DNA of 63,302 nucleotides, counting the filler. It is 6 parts of 6 records of this genome, joined end to end, with 100 filler letters (N's around TTAATTAATTAA, not from the genome) between each part and the next. Parts side by side here need not be neighbours in the genome. Positions count along the whole stretch, not along the records: positions 1 to 9,848 come from DRR723986_16541; 5 more parts are not named here. One strand, written 5' to 3'. This document shows positions 1 to 53,825 of the stretch, one piece after another; positions within the stretch are counted from its first letter, which is position 1, and each line of letters opens with the position of its first letter. A model generated the notes under the pieces. The model searched no databases and was not told the DNA's origin. It was given only the letters and a program-made list of their open reading frames with translations. Both the position numbers and the translations under genes were made by a program.

Positions 1-120
1 CAACAAACAAAACAATCAAAAGAGCCTGAGATGCCAGCTAAAATCCTCAAAGACTCACAGCCCAAGACCGAAATGTTAAGGCAGCTCAAAGCGGTCAGGA
101 GTTAAACAAAAAGAACACCC

Positions 121-807
121 TCAAACCCCAAGCACACAACCCTCAGCAATCACAAAACAGCGGTCCCCAGTTCCGGGACGCAACAATGCCAATCCGGTGA
201 ACTCGCTAAAAGCCGGCAGAATCATATTGTGCGTGCCAACAAAAAAGCAGGGGAGACGCAGGGACTGACGGCCGCGGCCAACAAGACGCACACCCGGATG
301 GATGTGGCCCGACATCGAATACAACTCCTGCTTAACATCAGCAGCATTATTAACATCCGCCTCGGACGGATCGTGAATAAATAAAAACGGCCCTTCGCGT
401 AATTCGTCAACAACCTGAATGTTTAACTCGTTGTACTGCTCGGGATCTAACCTGTCGTGGTTGCCACGCACAAGCACAAACTCAACGGATTTAATGCGCG
501 CGCGATAGTCCAGCACCACCGGCCACTCGGGGTTAACACGGCTGTGAAATAAATCGCCAAGGCACAAGATGCGTGCGACGGGCAGGGCCTCCACGACCTC
601 ACAAAGACGCTCCAAATCTGCCGGCAGAACGCCCTGCGGCACAGGCAGTCCCTCGCTGCGGAAATGACCGCTCTTGCCCCAATGCATGTCACTGACAATT
701 AGAGTTTTACGGGCGGGCCACCAGACACAACGCTGCGGCAGCAAGGTCAGGTTTTCGTTTTGCAAATCAATCTGCACAACTGAATCGGAATTTAACATTT
801 TGTTCAT
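121..807 (-). CDS. pdeM: Ligase-associated DNA damage response metallophosphoesterase/endonuclease PdeM
   Basis: Calcineurin-like motifs SDMHWGK, LGDLFH, GNHD and GHIHP, plus LPCF/ILPAFS. Last gene of the exonuclease-ligase-Lhr-PdeM operon. Confidence 0.9.
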   Translation of the reverse strand: MNKMLNSDSVVQIDLQNENLTLLPQRCVWWPARKTLIVSDMHWGKSGHFRSEGLPVPQGVLPADLERLCEVVEALPVARILCLGDLFHSRVNPEWPVVLDYRARIKSVEFVLVRGNHDRLDPEQYNELNIQVVDELREGPFLFIHDPSEADVNNAADVKQELYSMSGHIHPGVRLVGRGRQSLRLPCFFVGTHNMILPAFSEFTGLALLRPGTGDRCFVIAEGCVLGV

Positions 808-816
808 CGTACCGGC

Positions 817-3306
817 CTAGCGTTTTCTGCGCCTTGTTGCACCCGCAGCATCTTCCAACTGTAACTTCATTTTCTGAATCCGGTCAATTAAACGTTCACT
901 GCCAAGTTTTTCACGCAAACGATCAACCATGATTGGAAATGCAAATGGCGTAAATCGCTCCGGGTAGCGCAATTCAATATTACGTGTGCGAATGCTGTCC
1001 AGCGCGGTTCTCAAACGTTTTTCCTCCAGCTGAAATGCCAAGGTCTCGCTATAGGCCTGGTGCATCAAACGGTTGCCGCCTTCGTATTTTTCAAAAACAT
1101 CAAACAGCAAACCACTGGATGCCTGTAGCTGTTTGCCCATTTTTTTGTTACCGGGATATCCCTGAAATACCAGGCCTGCGACGCGCGCAATATCGCGAAA
1201 TCTCCTGCGGGCCATTTCCGTAGCGTTAACACTTTCGTAGATGTCAGCGACCAGATTCTCGCTACTAAAAAGGTTCTGTGCCAGCGCTTCCTCAACCGGA
1301 ATATCTTCAGCCGCCAATATTTCAAAACCATAGTCATTCATTGCAATCGAAAAACTGATGGGCTGCATGCGTGAGATTCTATACGCCAAAACCGCGCCCA
1401 TGCCTTCGTGTACAAGGCGGCCCTCAAAAGGATAAAAGAATACGTGGCAGCCCTCGCGCGAGAACGTTTTTTCGATTAATAAAGTCTCCGCAGCGGGGAG
1501 CAGGGACCAGTTGCGTTGTAGTTCGAGCAGTGGCTCCAGAGTTTTAATTTCAATGCGGCGCGAGCGCGTCTTGCGGGCGGCGGCATCAATTTGCATGCGC
1601 ATATGTTCCGAGACTTCCGTAGAAAGCGGAATGCGTCCACCCTGCCAGGAAGGCACTTTGCCATCCTTTTTGTTACTCTTTTTAACATAGGCCGTCATGT
1701 CTTTAATGCGTACCAACTCCAGGTTGCGCCCGGCAAACCAAAAACTCTTACCGGGTTTAATCCCGGAGATAAACCACTCTTCAATCGTCCCCAATTTTTT
1801 GCCGCTCATGAACTGTACTTTTAGCGACACATTTGCCGAGATCGTACCAATCTGCATGCGGTGGCGCAGAGCCGTGCGGCGGTCGGCAATTACGTACAAG
1901 CCATCTTCGTTAATCTTAACTTTGCGGTATTCATCGTAGGCGTGTAAACTGCGCCCACCTGTCGTGATGAAGTCGAGCACCCAATCAAATTCTTCGTCGC
2001 TGATATCCTTAAACGCATGTGTGCTGCGTACCTCAGCAAGCGCTTCGGGCGCTGCAAACCCACCACCGCTTGCGAGCGTGATGAGCCACTGAACCAATAC
2101 GTCCAGCGGATTAATTTGCGGCACGCGCGACTCAACATCGCTCTGTTTAATCGCCTCCTGAATTGCTGCGGACTCAACAAGTTCGAGCGCATTCGTCGGC
2201 ACAAAATACATGCGCGATGTTGCTCCGGGGGAGTGCCCACTGCGTCCGGCGCGCTGCAGAAAACGTGCCACGCCTTTGGGGCTGCCAACCTGAATCACCG
2301 TTTCGACGGGGCTAAAGTCAACCCCCAAATCCAAAGTTGAAGTGCAGACTACCGCCTTGAGACGCTCATTGCGTAGCGCGTCCTCCACCCAGTGGCGCAC
2401 ATCCATGTCCAGCGAGCCATGGTGAATAGCCATTTGCCCAGCCAGTTCCGGCGCGGCTTCCAGCAGGCGGTGATACCAGATTTCCGTCTGCGAACGCACG
2501 TTCGTAAATATCAACGTGGTTTTACTGGCATGTATAAGTGGAATAATTTTCTCGACCATGTGCGCTCCCAGGTGCCCGGACCAGGGGAAACGCTCTATCT
2601 CATCCGGCAGGATCGAACTGATTGTTAACAACTTCTTTTGTTTAACGGTTACTGTGCGGCTTTTGGCATCGTTTGCGCTCGCTCCCAGCAACACATCTTT
2701 GGCTTCGTCCAGATTTCCGATTGTAGCCGAAATGCCCCAGGTGCACATCTTGGGGTTTATGCTGCGCAAATGAGCCAGCCCAAGTTCGGTTTGGCTGCCA
2801 CGTTTGGAAGCAAGTAATTCATGCCACTCGTCAACAACCGTCATGCGCAAATGCCGGAAGTGACGTGCTCCATCGGCCATTGAGAACAAAACGTGCAGAC
2901 TCTCCGGCGTGGTTATCAGCACCTGCGGCATGCGCTTCAGTTGACGCTGTTTAACTGACTGGCTCGTGTCACTCGTGCGTGTTTCTACCGTCCAGGGCAA
3001 TTCCAATTCAGCGCACGTTGTTTCAATGGCGCGTGCTATATCTGCTGCCAGGGCGCGCAATGGTGTTAACCAAAGCACCTGTAAACCACTGACTTTGGCA
3101 TTGCGGTAGTCCGCACTTTTCTGCTCATTGATCCACTGTATCACCGGCCCGAACCACATTGCATAGGTTTTGCCACTGCCGGTGGGCGCGTTTAACAATC
3201 CCTGCTCGCCGCGATTAAAGGCGTTCCAGCAGCGCTGTTGGAAGTCAAAAACTTGCCAGCCACGCTCGTCAAACCATTTCTGTATGGTGGGATTGCCTTG
3301 TTTCAC
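817..3306 (-). CDS. Ligase-associated DEXH-box (Lhr-core) helicase
   Basis: APTGSGKT, DEWH, SAT, HHGSL, LDLGVD and QRAGRSGH SF2 motifs; 829 aa. GTG start overlaps the ligase stop. Confidence 0.93.
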   Translation of the reverse strand: MKQGNPTIQKWFDERGWQVFDFQQRCWNAFNRGEQGLLNAPTGSGKTYAMWFGPVIQWINEQKSADYRNAKVSGLQVLWLTPLRALAADIARAIETTCAELELPWTVETRTSDTSQSVKQRQLKRMPQVLITTPESLHVLFSMADGARHFRHLRMTVVDEWHELLASKRGSQTELGLAHLRSINPKMCTWGISATIGNLDEAKDVLLGASANDAKSRTVTVKQKKLLTISSILPDEIERFPWSGHLGAHMVEKIIPLIHASKTTLIFTNVRSQTEIWYHRLLEAAPELAGQMAIHHGSLDMDVRHWVEDALRNERLKAVVCTSTLDLGVDFSPVETVIQVGSPKGVARFLQRAGRSGHSPGATSRMYFVPTNALELVESAAIQEAIKQSDVESRVPQINPLDVLVQWLITLASGGGFAAPEALAEVRSTHAFKDISDEEFDWVLDFITTGGRSLHAYDEYRKVKINEDGLYVIADRRTALRHRMQIGTISANVSLKVQFMSGKKLGTIEEWFISGIKPGKSFWFAGRNLELVRIKDMTAYVKKSNKKDGKVPSWQGGRIPLSTEVSEHMRMQIDAAARKTRSRRIEIKTLEPLLELQRNWSLLPAAETLLIEKTFSREGCHVFFYPFEGRLVHEGMGAVLAYRISRMQPISFSIAMNDYGFEILAAEDIPVEEALAQNLFSSENLVADIYESVNATEMARRRFRDIARVAGLVFQGYPGNKKMGKQLQASSGLLFDVFEKYEGGNRLMHQAYSETLAFQLEEKRLRTALDSIRTRNIELRYPERFTPFAFPIMVDRLREKLGSERLIDRIQKMKLQLEDAAGATRRRKR

Positions 3307-4910
3307 GTGAAGTGCCCATTAACGGTTTTCAGGAGTTGTTTTACACGCGCGAGCGTATCAGCTGCTTCTTTGGGCTTGTCTTTGCGCCAGCCTTGTATCC
3401 GCGGAAATCGCAAGGACACGCCCGACTTATGGCGCTTTGACTCCTGGATTCCTTCAAAGGCCAATTCAAATACCAACTCCGCTTTAACAGTGCGCACTGG
3501 ACCAAATCGCTCCAGCGTATTGTCTTTCACAAAACTGGCGATCTCACGGAGCTCGGATTCTGTTAAACCGGAATACGCTTTGGCGAGCGGCACCAAGTTG
3601 TCTTCGGCATCCCAGACTGCGAAGGTGAACTCATTATAGTTTTCTGCACTGCGGCTGTTTTCGCGCTGTGCATAAATTAGGACTGCGTCAATAGTGAATG
3701 GATCAACTTTCCAGGCCCACCAAGGACCTCGTTCTGCCAATTCAGTATAGGAGCTGTTCCGCTGTTTAATAATTATTCCCGCCGCACGGTTTTGACGTGA
3801 TTGTTTTTGCAGTACAACAAGCTCAGCCCAGGAGTGCACATTCAGTGGTTCAGTTAATTGCAGACAGTCCGTTTGCAGACTGTTAACGAGTTTAACCAAA
3901 GCAGCACGGCGCGCATGCAGTGGGGAAGGGCGCATGTCTTGACCGTCCAGCTCCAGCAAATCGTAGGCAATTAAGGCAACCGGCACATCTTTTAACAATT
4001 TCTTGCCAACGGTCTTACGCCCCAAGCGCCGCTGCAATTGATAAAATGGTTGGATCTTGCCATCAAACAGCGCAATGATTTCGCCGTCGATCACAAAATC
4101 ATTTGTTTGTTTCTCCAGCAGAACACTAAACTCCGGAAAAAGATCGGTCATTAACTCTGCAGCGCGTGACCACACAAACAGCGCACCATTGCGTTTAACA
4201 ATTTGTGCACGCAGGCCTTCCCACTTCCATTCGGCCTGCCACTCACTGCATGGTCCTAGCTCTTGTGGCTCAACATCCAGCGCTTGTGCCGCACAAAATG
4301 GATAGGTGCGCGAATTCCCGGCAAGTTCATCTTCTTTTGTGGTTAACTCACTAAAACTGTTTACTCCAGGCTGCCAATTGTCCATCAAGCGATGTTCAAC
4401 AACTCCGGCCTCCAAACCGTGAAGTTCCGCGATTGCGCGACTTAACAGACTGCGTGAGATACTGGACCTGAATCCGCCCGAAATCAGTTTGTTAAACAAC
4501 AGAATTTGCGGGCGTGGCAAAACATTCCAGGCGGCAATTACTCGGCTCTTGCGTTCAGCCGCATCCAGCGCTTCCAGACTATCCACCATTTCGATCCAGT
4601 CCGTCAGACTGTTCTGACTTTCACCCAATGTTTTGGGGATTATCAGTGCAACGGTTTCGGCCAGGTCACCAACGTGTGCATAACTTTCTTCAAAGAGCCA
4701 TTCCGGCAGCCCTGCAGTTTCGGTGCCCCATTCGCGCAGTTGCTGACTGTTAACATATCTGCGTTGCGGTTTGCCCAGCAGCAGCGCCAGCGCATGCCTT
4801 TTGTCCGAATTTTTAACTTCGGCGGCAAAGTACTGTTTAAGCAGGCCTGCGCGTAGTTCATTGGTTTCAGCTTCTTCGAGTTTGGCGACGAGCTCCGCGA
4901 ATATTTTCAT
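3303..4910 (-). CDS. ATP-dependent DNA ligase family protein with degenerate catalytic motifs
   Basis: Motif I EWKWEGLR, WSR, III IDGEI, IIIa AYDLLE and VI LRFPRI are recognisable, as is the OB domain FGPVRTV. Motifs IV (AAGIIIK) and V (WWAWK) are substituted. Confidence 0.9.
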   Translation of the reverse strand: MKIFAELVAKLEEAETNELRAGLLKQYFAAEVKNSDKRHALALLLGKPQRRYVNSQQLREWGTETAGLPEWLFEESYAHVGDLAETVALIIPKTLGESQNSLTDWIEMVDSLEALDAAERKSRVIAAWNVLPRPQILLFNKLISGGFRSSISRSLLSRAIAELHGLEAGVVEHRLMDNWQPGVNSFSELTTKEDELAGNSRTYPFCAAQALDVEPQELGPCSEWQAEWKWEGLRAQIVKRNGALFVWSRAAELMTDLFPEFSVLLEKQTNDFVIDGEIIALFDGKIQPFYQLQRRLGRKTVGKKLLKDVPVALIAYDLLELDGQDMRPSPLHARRAALVKLVNSLQTDCLQLTEPLNVHSWAELVVLQKQSRQNRAAGIIIKQRNSSYTELAERGPWWAWKVDPFTIDAVLIYAQRENSRSAENYNEFTFAVWDAEDNLVPLAKAYSGLTESELREIASFVKDNTLERFGPVRTVKAELVFELAFEGIQESKRHKSGVSLRFPRIQGWRKDKPKEAADTLARVKQLLKTVNGHFT

Positions 4911-6145
4911 TCAACGGCCTCCATTGCGTCACCGGAGGCAAGATCTTGTTTAAGTTTATCTGCTGCAATTCCGTCTGTTTGATTGATTGCAGCGCCCGCG
5001 GCTTGCGCCTTTTGGCTCGCTTTTGATTTTTGTGTTAATCCCGCTGCGCTCTGGGTTTCAGGTGAAAATTCACCGGGCCTCCCAGTCTTTTTGATCGTTG
5101 AATCTTCGAATCCAGATTCCGAAACTTGTGCCGATTCTTCGCGTTCAGTGTTTTCTGCGCGTGTGGATAGGGTCTCTAATTCTTCTGCCTCAATGCCCAT
5201 GTTCTCGCGCAGCCAACGTGCATAGATTGCGCTGTATCCATGTGTCACGTAAACTTTATGTGCACCGGTCGCTTTTACCGCGCTGTTCAATCCATCCCAG
5301 TCGGCATGATCACTAAGAACAAAACCCGGCCCTGTTGAGCGGCGACGTTTGGCGTTACGCAGCGCCATCCAACCCGAGGCAAATGCATATGAGCATTCAC
5401 CAAACTTTTGCATCCATTCGGAGCCCTGCACACTCGGTGGTGCAATAAGCAGTGCCGGTGTGTCTTTGCAGGCATCCGGCAGAACCTCGGGCGGCACGCC
5501 ACATTTCGGCAGGGCAACTCCTGCTTCCAGATGCGCTGCATTCATTTTATCGACCGCACTGTGTACATATATTGGCCCACGGATATTCGTCAGTCCCGCC
5601 AACAAACGCTGCGCCTTACCCAGTGAATAAGCTTGCAGGCAACTGGTGATTCCCCGAGCCTGATTTGCGGCCCACCACACGTCAATTTCGCGCATGACAT
5701 CAACTGGATCTGGCCAGCGATACACGGGCAGTGCAAAGGTTGACTCCGTCACAAACACGTGGCAGGGAACCGCTTCAAAGTCAGCGGCTACATTGTCGGG
5801 CTCAAGTTTGTAGTCGCCGGAAATCACCCAGACTTCGCCTTTGTATTCTACGCGAATCTGCGCTGAGCCGAGCACGTGTCCTGCGGGATGAAACGAAAAC
5901 TTGACATTATTGATCTGGATGGTTTCACCGTACTCCACGCCCTGGATCGGCAGCTTGCGACTGAGGCGCGCGCGCAGAATTGGAAGCGAGTGATAATGCG
6001 CCAGGTAGGACCGATGTCCGGCGCGCGCATGGTCAGAGTGCGCATGTGTTATCAGCGCACGCGGAACGGCCCGGACGGGGTCGATGTAGGCATCGGCCGG
6101 GGGACAGTAGAGACCTTGCTTGGTGACTTGAATCAGGGAAGGCAT
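4907..6145 (-). CDS. Ligase-associated DNA damage response exonuclease (metallo-beta-lactamase/beta-CASP fold)
   Basis: THAHSDH, AGHVLGSAQ, SGDYK, ESTF, SDHADW and VTHG motifs. Start placed at MPSLIQ (6145) rather than 6196. Confidence 0.9.
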   Translation of the reverse strand: MPSLIQVTKQGLYCPPADAYIDPVRAVPRALITHAHSDHARAGHRSYLAHYHSLPILRARLSRKLPIQGVEYGETIQINNVKFSFHPAGHVLGSAQIRVEYKGEVWVISGDYKLEPDNVAADFEAVPCHVFVTESTFALPVYRWPDPVDVMREIDVWWAANQARGITSCLQAYSLGKAQRLLAGLTNIRGPIYVHSAVDKMNAAHLEAGVALPKCGVPPEVLPDACKDTPALLIAPPSVQGSEWMQKFGECSYAFASGWMALRNAKRRRSTGPGFVLSDHADWDGLNSAVKATGAHKVYVTHGYSAIYARWLRENMGIEAEELETLSTRAENTEREESAQVSESGFEDSTIKKTGRPGEFSPETQSAAGLTQKSKASQKAQAAGAAINQTDGIAADKLKQDLASGDAMEAVE

Positions 6146-6322
6146 GCGCTGTAAAACGTGGCAGTCATCGAATGATTGCGTGCGCGACTGTCTCAAATGC
6201 TTGTGCCTTCTCGTTCAGTGCAAAACAAGATGGTTTTGCTGGGAGGGATTTGCAGGCAAACATAGCCAGGAAGGGTCAGCTCACTACGCAGTCAAAAATT
6301 TTTCAATTTGCAGAAGAGCGGT

Positions 6323-7612
6323 CTACAGTAATTTATCCTTGGAGAGTTGTTTAATACGTTTGTTTAACAACTCAACCTGCGCACGTGATTCGGTTAACTC
6401 GCGTGCACGTAAGAGCCAGGCGCGCGCTTCCAGAGGATCGTTAATCCGACGGTAAAAATCGCCAAGTGTAGCAAACAAGAGCGGATAGGACTGCAGGGAG
6501 GGCTCATCTTCCAGCTCGTGCAGCAGCGGCAGAGCGTTCCGCACACCGTCACACATTCCCACGGCAATTGCATTGTTAAGTTTTACGATTGGATGTGGTT
6601 TTATTTTGAGCAGCATCTTATAAAACTGCGCAATCATCTGCCAGTTGGTTTCCGAGTAGTTCTGCGCAATGCAGTGTTCGGCGGCAATACCGGCTTCCAG
6701 GTGGTAGGCGCTGAGAACTTCACCGCGGCCGGCGAGGCTGAGCTGCTGCAAAGCATGTTCGATTAACTCTTTATCCCATAGCTCACGATTTTGCTCTTCA
6801 AAAATGACGATAGCACCGCCGCTATCAAGGCGCGCATCAAATCGCGCCGCATGTAAACACATCAGGGCCAGCAGCGCTCGCACGTGGTATTCGTCAGGAA
6901 AAAACTCAACAACCATATGTGTTAAGCGGATTGCTTCGGCGCAGAGTTCACGGCGGATCGGCAACTCCGAGTGATTGGAGTTGTAACCTTCGTTAAACAA
7001 CAAATACAGGGTCAGGCAGACGGCGTCAAGTCGCGGATGCAAGGCGTCCCCCTGCGGCGACTCCAACTGAATATCTCCCGACCGAAATTTTTGTTTGGCG
7101 CGGTACAGGCGTTTGTTTATTGTGGGGACATTACTTAACAAGGCATGCGCAATTTCTTTAACGCTAAAACCCGCCAGTGTTTTGAGTGTTAAAGCGATTT
7201 GACTTTCGCGCGCCAGCTCAGGATGGCAGCAGGTAAAAACCATGCGCAGCTGGCTATCGCGAATCTCTTTGTCCAGAAATATTTCGTCCAGCTCGGTTTC
7301 GCGTGGCAATTCACCTTCGAGCAGTTGCGCATCCACTTTTTGTTTGATTTTATCACGGCGCAGGAGGTTAATCGTTTTGCGTTTGGCGACTTCCATGAGC
7401 CAGGCCGCCGGGTTTTCGGGCAGTGGTCCAACGCTCCAGGCCTGGAGGGCCGCCTGCAATGTATCCTGCACAATATCTTCTGCCAGCTCGATCTGTGCCA
7501 GACCAAACAGGCGTGTTAATATCGCCGTCATACGTGCAGCTTCGTGCCGAAACAGATGTTCCACCAGCGCGTCAACGTCGTTATTTTTTTGTGCAGACTT
7601 CATTTCAAGCAC
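6323..7612 (-). CDS. ECF sigma factor with long C-terminal TPR-like extension (ECF42-type)
   Basis: Sigma2 region (AEDIVQD..NPAAWL), LRMVFTCCHP, sigma4, LYLLFNEGY and YHLEAGIAAEH; 429 aa; adjacent to a DGPF protein. Confidence 0.88.
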   Translation of the reverse strand: MLEMKSAQKNNDVDALVEHLFRHEAARMTAILTRLFGLAQIELAEDIVQDTLQAALQAWSVGPLPENPAAWLMEVAKRKTINLLRRDKIKQKVDAQLLEGELPRETELDEIFLDKEIRDSQLRMVFTCCHPELARESQIALTLKTLAGFSVKEIAHALLSNVPTINKRLYRAKQKFRSGDIQLESPQGDALHPRLDAVCLTLYLLFNEGYNSNHSELPIRRELCAEAIRLTHMVVEFFPDEYHVRALLALMCLHAARFDARLDSGGAIVIFEEQNRELWDKELIEHALQQLSLAGRGEVLSAYHLEAGIAAEHCIAQNYSETNWQMIAQFYKMLLKIKPHPIVKLNNAIAVGMCDGVRNALPLLHELEDEPSLQSYPLLFATLGDFYRRINDPLEARAWLLRARELTESRAQVELLNKRIKQLSKDKLL

Positions 7613-7630
7613 CCTGCCGTGGTCTTAGGT

Positions 7631-7960
7631 TTAACCCTGTTCCAGAAATGGACGCACGATTAACTCAGAGTGTTCAAGCAGCGGGCAGGTTTGGGCAATT
7701 TTGGTTGCATCATCCATATCCTGCGCTTGAACAACGATGTATCCAGCGATAATTTCTTTGGCCTCCAGGAAGGGGCCATCCGTCTCCACCGTATCTGCAT
7801 TTGTGACTTTAACAGCTTCGGCGCTCAAACGATTGCCTTCAAGATGGCGCTCTCCCAGATTTGAGGCCCAGGCACGATAGTCCTGGACACGCGCCTGCAG
7901 CTCTGCCGGTGAGAGATCAACAACTGGGCGGCCCTTAACAACAAACAAGAACTTCTGCAT
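7631..7960 (-). CDS. YCII-related DGPF-motif protein
   Basis: TDGPFLEAKEIIAGY and C-terminal VRP motifs; typical ECF42 partner. Confidence 0.88.
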   Translation of the reverse strand: MQKFLFVVKGRPVVDLSPAELQARVQDYRAWASNLGERHLEGNRLSAEAVKVTNADTVETDGPFLEAKEIIAGYIVVQAQDMDDATKIAQTCPLLEHSELIVRPFLEQG

Positions 7961-8014
7961 AAAGCTTTCTCAACTTAAACCCTAGTACCGGAATTGTTAA
8001 TTGATGCGAAAATT

Positions 8015-8043
8015 GATGGGTGATGCGCTGGGCATCACCCATC
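8015..8043. other. 12-bp perfect hairpin between the SnoaL and DGPF genes
   Basis: GATGGGTGATGC-gctgg-GCATCACCCATC. Confidence 0.55.
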
Positions 8044-8099
8044 TCGCAAAGCGTGCATAATATACGCGCTAAAGTCTGACGAAGCACAATTGTTGTTGT

Positions 8100-8444
8100 T
8101 TACTGCGCAGCCGCCATAGCCTGGCGCATTTCGGTGGCATCGAACATCAGGCGAATCTGGCTGATTTGTCCGTCGCGCATCGTAAACCATTCAGCCATGC
8201 GTACCGGTTTAATCGGAATATTCGCCGTGAACTGGTACACAACACAGTGTTCGTTGCCATCCTGAAAGTGATGTTGCTGGTCCATCGATTTGATCATCGG
8301 CTGCATTTGCACGAGCGCAGCCTTAAACTCATCCGCACCTTTGATAGTCATGATCGGACCATGAAATTCAAAGTCGGCACTCAGCGGCAAGCTGTTGATT
8401 GACTCTTCCGTGCGGGCTGCATAGTATTGTTTGATCGCGTCCAT
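8100..8444 (-). CDS. SnoaL/NTF2-like protein
   Basis: DFEFHGP...KGADEF and AEWFTMRDGQISQIRLMFD pattern; RBS GGAGA upstream. Confidence 0.8.
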   Translation of the reverse strand: MDAIKQYYAARTEESINSLPLSADFEFHGPIMTIKGADEFKAALVQMQPMIKSMDQQHHFQDGNEHCVVYQFTANIPIKPVRMAEWFTMRDGQISQIRLMFDATEMRQAMAAAQ

Positions 8445-8485
8445 TTGTCTCTCCAGAATGTGTTAAGTAATGCTTTCAAGCCATC

Positions 8486-8512
8486 GGCGTTTGGGGAGCG
8501 AGAAATAGGACA
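8486..8512 (-). promoter_or_regulatory. Candidate ECF42-type promoter
   Basis: Minus strand reads TGTCCT-N17-CGCC, resembling the TGTCGA...CG(A/T)C ECF42 consensus. It lies upstream of SnoaL-DGPF-sigma. Confidence 0.45.
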
Positions 8513-8540
8513 ACTCTCAATAACTTTTTTCATTTTTTTC

Positions 8541-9221
8541 TCAAACGTCTGCAGGCTGCTCAATTGCCGCGTTCAGAAATGACATTAATGGTTCAGCAGC
8601 CGCAAACACTTGCAGGATGCGTTCTTCCAGTTTGTCGTTCTTCAGCAGCGGCTGCACACTTTCGGCACGCATGACGTACCATTGTTTATTGGCTATTAGG
8701 GGCTCAGCGTCTTGAGCCTCACGGAATTCCGGCGGAATGCGTTTGAGTCGGCTTCCCTGCACCGGACCGAACAGTTCTGAGAATTCCGTGGATCTATAGA
8801 TCCCGCCAAAACCGGAGGGGGCCGCAGCAATTGCGCTGCGGATGGCGTTAATTCCGGCTTTGTCTGGGCCGTAGGCACCACCGCCCAGGTGAATCTGATC
8901 GGCCGAAACTCCCAGGAAAAAACCTGCATTAACGGATTTGCGGCCACCACGCACAAAGGCGGCTTTCATGGTTGTGTTGTATGGCGACTTGTCCGCACTG
9001 AAACGGATGTCGCGATTGATACGAAAGATCGCCTCTTTAGCCTGCATGTCTATCTGTGCATCCAGGCTCTGCATGTGCGGCAGCAAATCTGCTACCAGCT
9101 TGCTAAATGGTTTTTTGACGTGTTGTTCGTAGCGTTTGCGGTTTTCATCGAACCAGGCTTTACTGTTGTTGGCCTGCAGCTCGCGCAGGAAGTCGCAGAA
9201 TTCAGTTGTCAGCACACTCAT
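8541..9221 (-). CDS. DUF2461 family protein
   Basis: FLRELQANNSKAWFDENRKRYE and IFRINRDIRFSADKSPY signatures. Start at MSVLTT (9221). Confidence 0.88.
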   Translation of the reverse strand: MSVLTTEFCDFLRELQANNSKAWFDENRKRYEQHVKKPFSKLVADLLPHMQSLDAQIDMQAKEAIFRINRDIRFSADKSPYNTTMKAAFVRGGRKSVNAGFFLGVSADQIHLGGGAYGPDKAGINAIRSAIAAAPSGFGGIYRSTEFSELFGPVQGSRLKRIPPEFREAQDAEPLIANKQWYVMRAESVQPLLKNDKLEERILQVFAAAEPLMSFLNAAIEQPADV

Positions 9222-9225
9222 AACT

Positions 9226-9546
9226 TTACTCCCGGATGACGTCGTAAGACTGCTCTGCCAGAGGCTGCCACAGGGCGTCACAGCTTTGAGGGCAGGCGAA
9301 CCACCCGCGTAGCGGACCTTTGTTTTTGAAGGGGTTAAATTCGGCCAAATCAGCGCATCCTGCGCCGGCCACGTCAAACTCCTTGCCGAGTTTGAAGACG
9401 AGCTCACCGCGCCGCGAAAGGAAGATAAACACCTTGCCGCGGTATGTAATCGCCGGCGAACTCATCATCTTGCCTGCAGCCACCTGCGTATCGCGGGCAG
9501 AGTATTGATCAAGTAGCGCTTCAAAACTTGCCTGTGCCTTGTGCAT
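9226..9546 (-). CDS. Small hypothetical protein, TfoX-N/YjbR-like
   Basis: GKMMSSPAITYRGKVF...LVFKL...FNPFKNKGPLRGW pattern; 4-nt gap to DUF2461. Confidence 0.6.
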   Translation of the reverse strand: MHKAQASFEALLDQYSARDTQVAAGKMMSSPAITYRGKVFIFLSRRGELVFKLGKEFDVAGAGCADLAEFNPFKNKGPLRGWFACPQSCDALWQPLAEQSYDVIRE

Positions 9547-9848
9547 TCCAGCCTCTATCCAGCAGTTCAAAACCATACGTCGTTTGAGCCAGGTAAAATA
9601 GGACAGCCAGGCAGAGAAAATCTAGGATCTTTGGGTGGATGTTGCGAGTGCAACGAAAATTTATTGGTTGTGTGTGCAGTTTACTTGGGTGGGCGCCGGA
9701 AATGGAAACGCCATAAAGCATTACAAATCAACAACTTACAAGGATTGCAATTTCGAATAAGTCAATTTTGGGCGCACCTCTGCGTGATCAAGGGTGCCTC
9801 CCCACCGCCGCCTCGTGTTACCTTATACCGGTTTCTATATACGCCTCC

Positions 9849-9948
9849 NNNNNNNNNNNNNNNNNNNNNNNNNNNNNNNNNNNNNNNNNNNNTTAATTAA
9901 TTAANNNNNNNNNNNNNNNNNNNNNNNNNNNNNNNNNNNNNNNNNNNN
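9849..9948. other. Artificial contig-join spacer (N run with TTAATTAATTAA)
   Basis: 100-nt N spacer with an all-frame stop linker. Confidence 0.99.
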
Positions 9949-20437: not shown

Positions 20438-20537
20438 NNNNNNNNNNNNNNNNNNNNNNNNNNNNNNNNNNNNNNNNNNNNTTAATTAATTAANNNNNNN
20501 NNNNNNNNNNNNNNNNNNNNNNNNNNNNNNNNNNNNN
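20438..20537. other. Artificial contig-join spacer
   Basis: N run with TTAATTAATTAA. Confidence 0.99.
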
Positions 20538-34777: not shown

Positions 34778-34877
34778 NNNNNNNNNNNNNNNNNNNNNNN
34801 NNNNNNNNNNNNNNNNNNNNNTTAATTAATTAANNNNNNNNNNNNNNNNNNNNNNNNNNNNNNNNNNNNNNNNNNNN
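34778..34877. other. Artificial contig-join spacer
   Basis: N run with TTAATTAATTAA. Confidence 0.99.
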
Positions 34878-44609: not shown

Positions 44610-44709
44610 NNNNNNNNNNNNNNNNNNNNNNNNNNNNNNNNNNNNNNNNNNNNTTAATTAATTAANNNNNNNNNNNNNNNNNNNNNNNNNNNNNNNNNNN
44701 NNNNNNNNN
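44610..44709. other. Artificial contig-join spacer
   Basis: N run with TTAATTAATTAA. Confidence 0.99.
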
Positions 44710-53725: not shown

Positions 53726-53825
53726 NNNNNNNNNNNNNNNNNNNNNNNNNNNNNNNNNNNNNNNNNNNNTTAATTAATTAANNNNNNNNNNNNNNNNNNN
53801 NNNNNNNNNNNNNNNNNNNNNNNNN
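53726..53825. other. Artificial contig-join spacer
   Basis: N run with TTAATTAATTAA. Confidence 0.99.

Follow-up and report, generated by a model that had tools for sequence, protein, structure and literature searches.

What keeps a full-length ATP-dependent DNA ligase in an operon once the residues needed for nick sealing appear to be gone? The question is raised by positions 1-9848 of the window (the whole 63,302-nucleotide stretch of N-spaced contigs analysed here, of which this is the sole part belonging to the operon), where a LigB-type ligase homologue lies among genes for a beta-CASP exonuclease (Exo), an Lhr-Core helicase and the endonuclease PdeM (Table 1). With a probability of about 0.63, the sequence evidence favours a folded LigB that would be unable to seal nicks and is retained as a non-catalytic accessory subunit of Exo; we infer both the inactivity of the ligase and its binding to Exo. 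As the earlier note had stated, the ligase is full-length, in frame and joined to both neighbours by 4-nt overlaps (4907-4910 with Exo, 3303-3306 with Lhr), the 535-aa frame being open. All three neighbours score over their family cut-offs, and the catalytic motifs that had been called intact in them were found in full, namely THAHSDH, SGDY, SDHAD and THG in Exo, GSGKT, DEWH, SAT and QRAGRSGH in Lhr, and SDMH, LGDLFH, GNHD and GHIHP in PdeM; nevertheless, Exo, although catalytically intact, is not canonical elsewhere (W41V, G281N, D289G). The Exo frame was counted from a TTG, the likely start being the ATG at 6145, and its C-terminus is a low-complexity tail of ~85 aa. A scan for promoters and terminators gave no excess over shuffled sequences.

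Table 1. Features of the operon in window coordinates, with the basis of each assignment.
Feature	Position	Strand	Basis or remark
PdeM/MPE metallophosphoesterase endonuclease, motifs intact	121..807	minus	TIGR04123, 214.6 bits
Lhr-Core DEXH helicase, intact	817..3306	minus	TIGR04121, 1120.5 bits
LigB-type ATP-dependent DNA ligase homologue, 535 aa, predicted catalytically dead	3303..4910	minus	TIGR04120, PRK09247, Pfam
Ligase domain limits: DBD ~1-195, adenylation domain ~196-402, OB ~403-530 (residues)			
MBL/beta-CASP exonuclease (Exo), metal ligands intact	4907..6196	minus	TIGR04122, 438.8 bits (cut-off 325)
Motif I EWKWEG: Asp231 to Glu, Lys229 kept	4215..4232	minus	D231 in 220/220 near homologues
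Motif IV AAGIIIK: Glu377Ala, Met380Ile, Lys382 kept	3765..3785	minus	against near homologues
YTELAERG: Gly391Leu, Arg392Ala	3726-3749 (within 3708..3749)	minus	against near homologues
Motif V WWAWK: Lys399Ala (three base changes), Lys401 kept	3708-3722	minus	against near homologues
First OB loop AQRENSRS in place of AQxGxGRR: G417E, G419S, R421S	3648..3671	minus	against near homologues
DBD helix pair (LREW..E..GLPEWLFEESY..VGDLAETVALI), residues 55-92, intact	4635..4748	minus	DBD piece retained by reduced and fused forms
OB motif NTLERFGPVRTV, residues 464-475, intact	3486..3521	minus	retained in dead, reduced and fused forms
OB motif SKRHKSG, residues 491-497, intact	3420..3440	minus	retained in dead, reduced and fused forms
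Exo Val41 in DPV (Trp in DPW beside intact ligases)	6074..6076	minus	W41 comparison
Exo Asn281 (G281N)	5354-5356	minus	position-281 comparison
Exo Gly289 (D289G)	5330-5332	minus	position-289 comparison

By its clustering with Exo, Lhr-Core and MPE/PdeM, its TIGR04120 score (533.9 bits, cut-off 400) and its three domains, the window ligase belongs to the LigB family; it also passes PRK09247 (600.4, cut-off 543), carries PF04675, PF01068 and PF04679 in a single chain and retrieves ligase clusters only from the ESM Atlas. In a fold search, the structural model of the protein (pLDDT 91.8) retrieves ligases of archaeal and human origin and, with fold and frame preserved and catalytic residues gone, the protein has this one mark of a maintained pseudoenzyme. 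The LigB systems described in the cited sections share with the window the family score, the three-domain layout and the order Exo-Lig-Lhr-PdeM (PMC7826289, PMC7470946). The described enzymes seal nicks efficiently (PMC7826289, PMC10140301), whereas the window copy is without the motif I Asp, the motif IV Glu and the first motif V Lys.

The changes reported in the earlier note for motif I (KWEG), motif IV (AAGIIIK) and motif V (WWAWK) are confirmed in position, as are the replaced G-R rich segments YTELAERG and AQRENSRS. Among near homologues (n=220; P0005-P0225 minus P0122), D231, E377, K399, G250, G391, R392, G417, G419, R421 and D427 are invariant (220/220), and thus the consensus given in that note is correct. 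According to the passages cited, the motif I Asp and motif IV Glu bind the catalytic metal via waters and the motif V Lys touches the AMP phosphate (PMC6698739), while in DraRnl, a related ligase, replacement of the motif IV Glu by Ala stops steps 1 and 3 (PMC1807946). Of the features that mark an active ligase, the window copy lacks the KxDG of motif I, the Glu of motif IV and the KxK of motif V (first Lys replaced by Ala, second retained), and it has the adenylated Lys and motifs Ia, III, IIIa and VI (K229, R249, DGE, YD, RFPR). The residues retained, among which the Lys and motifs III, IIIa and VI had already been recognised, comprise K229, R234, R249, D275/E277, Y316/D317, K382, K401 and RFPR; substitutions beyond those first noted are G150S, G177D, P202T, L207A, G250A/E251A, M380I and R507G.

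Across 94 sites conserved at ≥90% among 82 intact representatives, the window ligase carries 19 substitutions, which fall on 16 of the 28 sites lost by other dead ligases vs 3 of the remaining 66 (Fisher p 4e-8). Six of the 19 need 2-3 base changes (three for K399A) and this, along with the open frame, speaks against base-call error. An assembly or base-call artefact is hardly credible, since the substitutions come with no indel and centre on convergently lost sites, and since the adjoining Exo gene carries matching changes with Lhr normal. Judged from the alignment, residues for metal binding and AMP handling have been lost, and the DBD helix pair and both OB motifs are intact.

The clade sharing KWEG/AAG/WAWK that the earlier note had asked about did not emerge, and the loss is convergent. 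The nearest relatives (P0002-P0004) retain KWDG, EG and WWKW in motifs I, IV and V (first Lys), no second copy of the allele was seen among the 120 best matches of two protein searches, two clade-specific DNA patterns gave 0 matches in JGI metagenomes, and a genome scan for relatives of the window ligase yielded at least 80 loci, all distant. Individual window substitutions recur elsewhere, P0274 carrying both E377A and WWAWK. Identity to the sister operons is 84-85% for Lhr and only 58-61% for the ligase, while the window branch measures 0.58 for the ligase vs 0.11 for Lhr, the latter evolving at a normal rate; against the intact sister P0003, the Tajima chi-square is 12.6-17. A ligase branch that is about fivefold longer is also expected from relaxed selection and, along with the intact or nearly intact state of the nearest relatives, the Tajima result, dead copies split by frameshifts elsewhere (L107, L108) and Exo genes lacking a detected remnant in four genomes, it is what slow decay would give, with a dispensable, drifting, functionless ligase whose frame is held only by the Exo and Lhr overlaps and whose loss is to come. 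Nevertheless, such decay seems unlikely: at ~40% divergence from the sisters, no stop or frameshift has entered the 535 codons, the changes centre on sites lost by other dead ligases with 63/66 others spared, dead clades outlast synonymous saturation, and fusion remnants are retained at 41-80% identity. Four dead ligases of the G261 family have pS 0.69-0.79, pN 0.28-0.35 and open frames, and dN/dS is ~0.2 or lower where measurable (the G261 dead clade and the G019/G024 dead pair); the G261 dead clade is under purifying selection. The split ligases also count against an accessory-subunit role, as do neighbouring Exo genes that are interrupted at two loci (L119, L145).

Dead LigB ligases arose several times. 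Among the best 150 representatives of the 50%-cluster set, 61 are near full-length ligases (478-574 aa) in which two or more of 9 core catalytic residues are changed, and 28 of the 150 lack the adenylated Lys. One large dead clade was suggested by the first tree and rejected once convergent columns were removed, the AU test on the remaining columns rejecting a single-clade origin of 14 dead ligases (p-AU 2e-47). The proposal in the earlier note of a concerted loss leaving a non-sealing scaffold is supported, as the sites match those of unrelated dead ligases, dead ligases of other lineages are maintained by purifying selection, and in some lineages the catalytic domain is deleted while other parts stay.

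The pattern of retention across 74 dead ligases bears on what such proteins could still do. The DBD helix pair is kept (W71 99%, L72 95%, E85 96%), as are G470 and P471 of the OB domain (100%); F502 (3%), Y446 (15%), R421 (22%) and R509 (28%), which are nick-gripping residues in ligase I structures, are poorly kept. A nick-gripping role of these ligase residues is backed in general terms only by PMC6035275. A nick sensor or DNA clamp, which would encircle nicked DNA unsealed and draw in one of its three neighbours (Exo, Lhr or PdeM) at the lesion, could build on the three domains, RFPR, AYSG, R249, R501, R509 and K512 of the window copy. Judging by its title, a paper on ligase IV would give a precedent: ‘Catalytically inactive DNA ligase IV promotes DNA repair in living cells’ (PMC9638927). 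It is, however, improbable in view of the poor retention of the gripping residues and of the missing first-OB-loop GxGRR and G150 in the window copy; furthermore, the sisters P0002 and P0004 altered the first OB loop independently and lost the nick-gripping loops ahead of any motif I/IV residue, and a ring is impossible for forms without an adenylation domain. Altered chemistry, in which the protein would adenylate itself or a nucleic acid end without sealing, for example marking 5' ends for Exo, has in its favour the retained K229, R234, E277, K382 and K401, the conservative D231E and the statement, in the section cited, that the motif I Asp is dispensable for self-adenylation in most ligases (PMC1807946). 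It is very improbable all the same, as the same excerpt has the motif IV Glu to Ala change stopping DraRnl self-adenylation, the adenylated Lys is missing from many representatives, no new residue common to the 74 dead copies was seen, and the adenylation domain is deleted in other lineages. Nick sensing and altered chemistry, both raised in the earlier note, are unlikely, given that in the dead class the OB loops, RFPR and the whole adenylation domain are the first to be lost or are deleted.

A dead paralogue next to an active copy was considered and set aside, as the flanks of 80 loci held no second ligase; in the Bacteroidota sample, each of 116/116 genomes has one ligase match, and one case was seen of an intact operon with a second remnant (G155). 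Other ATP-dependent ligases are present in 2/5 dead-ligase genomes, with a second match in 4/5, and were not found in 5/5 searched genomes with reduced or fused forms; therefore, the loss does not require another ATP ligase to step in. In the Pseudomonadota sample (27/151), every match is over the cut-off and the lowest-scoring one reads as intact, while the Chloroflexota sample (61/301 matches) was left out of the analysis.

The reduction of the ligase can be followed in the G213 family, where 25 of 51 genomes bear Exo. The ligase is intact in one of the 25, near full-length in three (two dead, the third truncated at the edge of its locus and therefore uncertain), shortened in four, without an adenylation domain in eight (seven adjoining Exo, one ~10 kb off) and fused to Exo as a remnant in nine. 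The series runs stepwise from a dead ligase through deletion of the adenylation domain to fusion with the exonuclease. The nine natural fusions are ~540 aa long. Only the DBD helix pair, detected by HMM in 6/9, and the OB domain are retained in the fusions. Among reduced or dead OB domains, G470 (30/30), P471 (28/30) and T465 (27/30) persist in motif 464-475, as do R493 (29/30), K495 (27/30) and G497 (28/30) in motif 491-497. A fusion model from a G213 relative combines beta-CASP and ligase OB (pLDDT 90.8, pTM 0.75), its OB superposing on 3gde with Z 17.0 (rmsd 2.2, 125 residues). The helix pair and OB motifs intact in the window ligase are exactly the parts that survive adenylation-domain deletion or Exo fusion elsewhere. 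Repeated loss in many unrelated bacteria, with a remnant kept beside or fused to the nuclease, suggests a second job of the ligase as a nuclease helper subunit. No description of dead, reduced or fused LigB remnants was found in the literature searched; a published survey of this cluster could nevertheless mention degenerate ligases.

The earlier note had looked to Lhr and PdeM for the partner of the ligase; co-occurrence, fusion and covariation indicate Exo instead, and the best reading is that the ligase is not mainly a partner of Lhr or PdeM, Exo being the proposed one. Exo is found in 5/5 dead-ligase genomes and Lhr in 1/5, and Lhr is likewise found in 1/5 genomes with reduced or fused forms. 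Among 401 Bacteroidota genomes, Exo accompanies the ligase match in 116/116, and 6/7 further Exo-bearing genomes have a ligase remnant. Exo without a detected remnant (G778-G780 of the G261 family, and G387) implies that some lineages can do without the subunit or that a remnant was missed; moreover, the dead gene or remnant does not adjoin Exo in G019, G024, G014, G292 and G320. The state of Exo follows that of the ligase: W41 occurs in 90/91 Exo proteins beside intact ligases vs 5/37 beside dead ones, G/A/S281 in 92/92 vs 9/38 and D289 in 91/92 vs 14/32, counts that include many close relatives, so that p values overstate independence. One intact ligase (L153) adjoins an Exo without W41.

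An Exo-subunit role could have come about if canonical LigB had two separable jobs, sealing and Exo support. The helix pair and OB domain would pack onto Exo and either stabilise it or lend a basic nucleic-acid-binding surface (R473, R493, K495). Where sealing by LigB is no longer needed, presumably with NAD-dependent LigA or another ligase covering, the catalytic and nick-gripping residues would drift, and Exo residues serving a ligase-coupled step (W41, G281, D289) would drift in parallel. The window copy may represent an early stage on such a path from dead to reduced to fused.

Known systems offer partial parallels. Fusions from Opitutus terrae and Antarctic Dry Valley metagenomes (DV-1-1) join Exo and LigB in one chain like the G213-type fusions but carry a whole active ligase (PMC10140301), whereas those found here hold only the DBD helix pair and OB domain. 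In Artemis-DNA ligase IV, the nuclease is likewise of the MBL family and contacts an ATP-dependent ligase at its DNA-binding domain (PMC3664939); there, the ligase is active and a tail peptide of Artemis sits on its helices 1-2, while here a helix pair further along and the OB domain of a dead or reduced ligase would be used, and the likeness is one of functional analogy only. The nearest folds to the Exo domain of the G213 fusion model are 3af5 (Z 30.2, rmsd 3.0, 318 residues), 2dkf (29.8) and 6v4x (28.7), with lower Z for SNM1A (23.3), Apollo (22.7) and Artemis (22.5). These nearest folds belong to beta-CASP nucleases that act on RNA and have accessory parts (archaeal aCPSF1, TTHA0252, CPSF73), although identity to them is 13-20%, the part added here is an OB domain of ligase origin, and a shared fold shows no substrate. 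The last Exo motif, THG, has a His, as is typical of RNA-acting members. More tentatively, the LigB helix pair and OB could be a required Exo subunit. Exo with the remnant would then be an independent nuclease module from which ligation, Lhr and PdeM have been dropped repeatedly; its substrate might be RNA or RNA:DNA and not crosslinked DNA, and the nine fusions would be its minimal soluble form.

In the cited sections on this cluster, Exo is uncharacterised and the pathway substrate unknown (PMC7826289, PMC10140301), and the nuclease domain from one naturally occurring Exo-LigB fusion was insoluble on its own (PMC10140301). Should LigB also serve as an Exo subunit, this would account for the insolubility of the nuclease alone, and Exo would become assayable via ligase co-expression or a natural Exo-remnant fusion. 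For annotation, it matters that dead copies score above the TIGR04120 cut-off and in some cases already bear the name ‘cisplatin damage response ATP-dependent DNA ligase’. If true, the proposed role would define a class of DNA pseudo-ligases in bacteria for which every evolutionary stage is represented, from active through dead and domain-deleted to fused forms.

The repair operon lies within positions 1-9848 of the window, which is assembled from six contigs with GC contents of about 0.51 to 0.66. SnoaL-like and DUF2461 genes are located farther upstream of the operon. Other contigs, probably from other organisms, hold the paa-like genes (after 10000) and the type I secretion genes (after 57000). 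At its C-terminus the window Exo has an additional low-complexity tail, ~85 aa long and rich in Ser, Glu and Ala (residues 344-429; 4907-5165, minus strand), extending past the TIGR04122 match.

Features of the window (the four repair genes each score above the family cut-off)
Feature	Position	Strand	Remark
PdeM	121-807	-	TIGR04123 above cut-off
Lhr	817-3306	-	TIGR04121 above cut-off
Ligase	3303-4910	-	TIGR04120 above cut-off
Exo	4907-6196	-	TIGR04122 above cut-off
ECF sigma factor with DUF6596 extension	6323-7612	-	adjoining the repair operon on its upstream side, same strand
YCII-domain gene	7631-7960	-	upstream of the repair operon, same strand
Spacers	9849-9948, 20438-20537, 34778-34877, 44610-44709, 53726-53825		N44-12 bp-N44, joining the contigs

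The ligase reading frame is open across 535 codons, and every motif change listed in the earlier note is present where it was placed. D231, E377, K399, G391, R392, G417, G419 and R421 are canonical in 220/220 near homologues. In a bacterial ATP-dependent ligase, the Asp of motif I and the Glu of motif IV position the catalytic metal, and the AMP phosphate is contacted through the Lys of motif V (PMC6698739); in DraRnl, replacement of the motif IV Glu by Ala inactivates the enzyme globally (PMC1807946). The window protein fails these three defining motifs of an active ligase. Since the residues are lost and their roles are known in other ligases, catalytic inactivity is a strong prediction. The predicted structure is that of a whole three-domain ligase (pLDDT 91.8), and the gene is, as read from its sequence, a real pseudo-ligase with predicted inactivity.

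No clade sharing the KWEG/AAG/WAWK motifs, as envisaged earlier, was found among the 120 best hits of two protein searches: the only three clusters at 58-60% identity (homologues P0002-P0004) retain KWDG, EG and WWKW. P0003 is intact; the OB loops are altered in P0002 and P0004, the latter being changed also at K401 and F502. Between the window operon and theirs, Lhr is 84-85% identical versus 58-61% for the ligase, and the terminal branch of the window measures 0.58 for the ligase versus 0.11 for Lhr, in a tree with eight outgroups including one locus from an unpublished genome (L019), of which the pairwise identities are independent. Taken alone, these relatives fit the alternative of canonical homologues with relaxed selection on this copy; recurrent and patterned loss is seen elsewhere as well.

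When the 150 best 50%-cluster representatives were scored at nine core residues, all nine were present in 82, one was missing in 6 and at least two in 62. Removal of P0353 (alignment gap) left 61 of 478-574 aa, a count that yields no frequency, as such representatives favour fast-evolving sequences. The ligase family was matched in 116/401 Bacteroidota genomes (one match each); among 20 matches picked for low score and read, 7 were degenerate, two of them from a second subfamily. Together with six remnants, dead or reduced ligases occur in at least 13/123 Exo-bearing genomes of this sample. Dead ligases with a named source include ones from Saprospiraceae, Haliscomenobacter and Anaerolineae, and in Planctomycetota a dead ligase adjoins Exo at 1/8 loci read. 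With convergent columns removed, dead ligases are scattered throughout the tree; a single clade for 14 of them was rejected by a tree test on the same basis. In comparison with the 82 intact representatives, 74 dead ligases lack E377, M380, R249/G250, G391/R392, K399 and G417-R421 as well as D427, Y446/S447, R501/F502, R509 and K512, and retain W71/L72, GDxxET, NTxExFGPVR and SxRHKSG. The window ligase is altered at 16/28 of the lost sites versus 3/66 remaining sites. The loss of ligase residues, on these alignments, is recurrent and patterned. The second ligase/Exo subfamily (loci L086, L087, L179, L180; motif I EEKFDGMR; Exo ~27-32% identical to that of the window) also contains degenerate ligases, with OB-bearing remnants of 234-261 aa in genomes G292 and G320.

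Dead copies are maintained in other clades. In the G261 family (30 genomes), four dead ligases form one clade with complete operons and open frames; synonymous sites are saturated (pS 0.69-0.79; pN 0.28-0.35), and the ligase dN exceeds the Lhr value roughly threefold, the ratio being about one for intact pairs. For the G019/G024 pair, dN/dS is 0.23. Signs of decay, with assembly error possible in each, are the splitting of L107 and L108 (two dead ligases among 16 Chitinophagales loci read) and frameshifts in Exo and PdeM at L119. Between dead- and intact-ligase operons of the G261 family (loci L081, G261:C25, and L125, G789:C53), Lhr is 65-93% and PdeM 73-91% identical, but Exo only 50-60% and the ligase 37-46%: Exo and ligase form a module that evolves or moves separately from Lhr/PdeM.

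Exo covaries with ligase state. The active set held 93 loci (92 verified intact at the nine core sites, one truncated and dropped), and the dead set omits the uncertain L169 and two second-subfamily loci. Beside intact versus dead ligases, W41 is found in 90/91 versus 5/37, G/A/S281 in 92/92 versus 9/38, D289 in 91/92 versus 14/32 and W261 in 89/92 versus 11/36, with p values inflated by many close-kin rows. The replacement residue varies by lineage (V41, N281 and G289 in the window), and the checked metal ligands are present in all dead-partner Exo covering those sites. DPW occurs in 7/7 additional intact loci and also in the one additional dead locus.

Dead-ligase genomes carry Exo in 5/5 cases and Lhr in 1/5. 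Every ligase genome of the 401-genome sample also has Exo; of seven Exo genomes lacking a ligase match, six turned out to carry the ligase in shortened, remnant or fused form, the seventh yielding no remnant. Exo is present in 25/51 genomes of the G213 family, where the ligase is intact in 1, near full-length in 3 (two dead, one cut off and uncertain), shortened in 4, devoid of the adenylation domain in 8 and fused to Exo in 9. This family displays the entire path from intact through dead and domain-deleted to fused; in a quick Exo tree, fusions fall into two groups and deletions into three or more. G470, P471, R493, K495 and G497 are conserved in 27-30 of the 30 OB domains compared from dead or reduced ligases, and F502 is mostly substituted. 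A fold search on the fusion model (pLDDT 90.8, pTM 0.75) returned a beta-CASP nuclease plus the ligase OB fold. In three genomes with Exo (G778-G780), two profiles found no ligase remnant, which counts against an obligatory role.

At one locus (L148, G1115:C150), an Exo-remnant fusion is directly followed by Lhr, so that a fusion can occupy the original operon position. Genome G155 (loci L094 and L145) combines an intact Exo-Lig-Lhr-PdeM operon with a second Exo, whose match has an internal TAG; behind this Exo lies a ligase remnant of 496 aa that has diverged strongly. Another Exo-like family, scoring 257-291 bits against TIGR04122, occurs in G183, G403, G307, G263, G021, G231 and G387, as a second copy in 6/7 of these genomes; no ligase remnant was found in G387.

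The window ligase is most likely an accessory subunit of Exo. Sequence comparison shows the loss of catalytic residues, the survival of the helix pair together with the OB motifs, the recurrence of loss, selection in other clades, the deletion and fusion series and Exo covariation. The pseudo-ligase would physically bind Exo and may serve its folding, its solubility or a nucleic-acid-binding surface, while nick sealing would presumably be covered by LigA instead. The Exo-subunit reading fits the insolubility of the nuclease domain when excised from a naturally occurring Exo-LigB fusion (PMC10140301). Exo may act on DNA or on RNA: it is predicted to be SNM1B-like in PMC7470946, and RNA-acting beta-CASP members rank higher in the fold search on the fusion model.

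By descent, the window ligase is a LigB of the Exo-Lig-Lhr-MPE cluster described in PMC7826289. Known Exo-LigB fusions contain the whole ligase, whereas those found here join a remnant to Exo. The literature search found no report of dead, reduced or remnant-fused LigB forms, and a review from 2026 on crosslink repair in bacteria (PMC13705206) yielded no passage on the Lhr/ligase cluster. The pseudo-ligase would represent a previously undescribed form within the known Exo-Lig-Lhr-MPE system, in which it is most likely a subunit of Exo.
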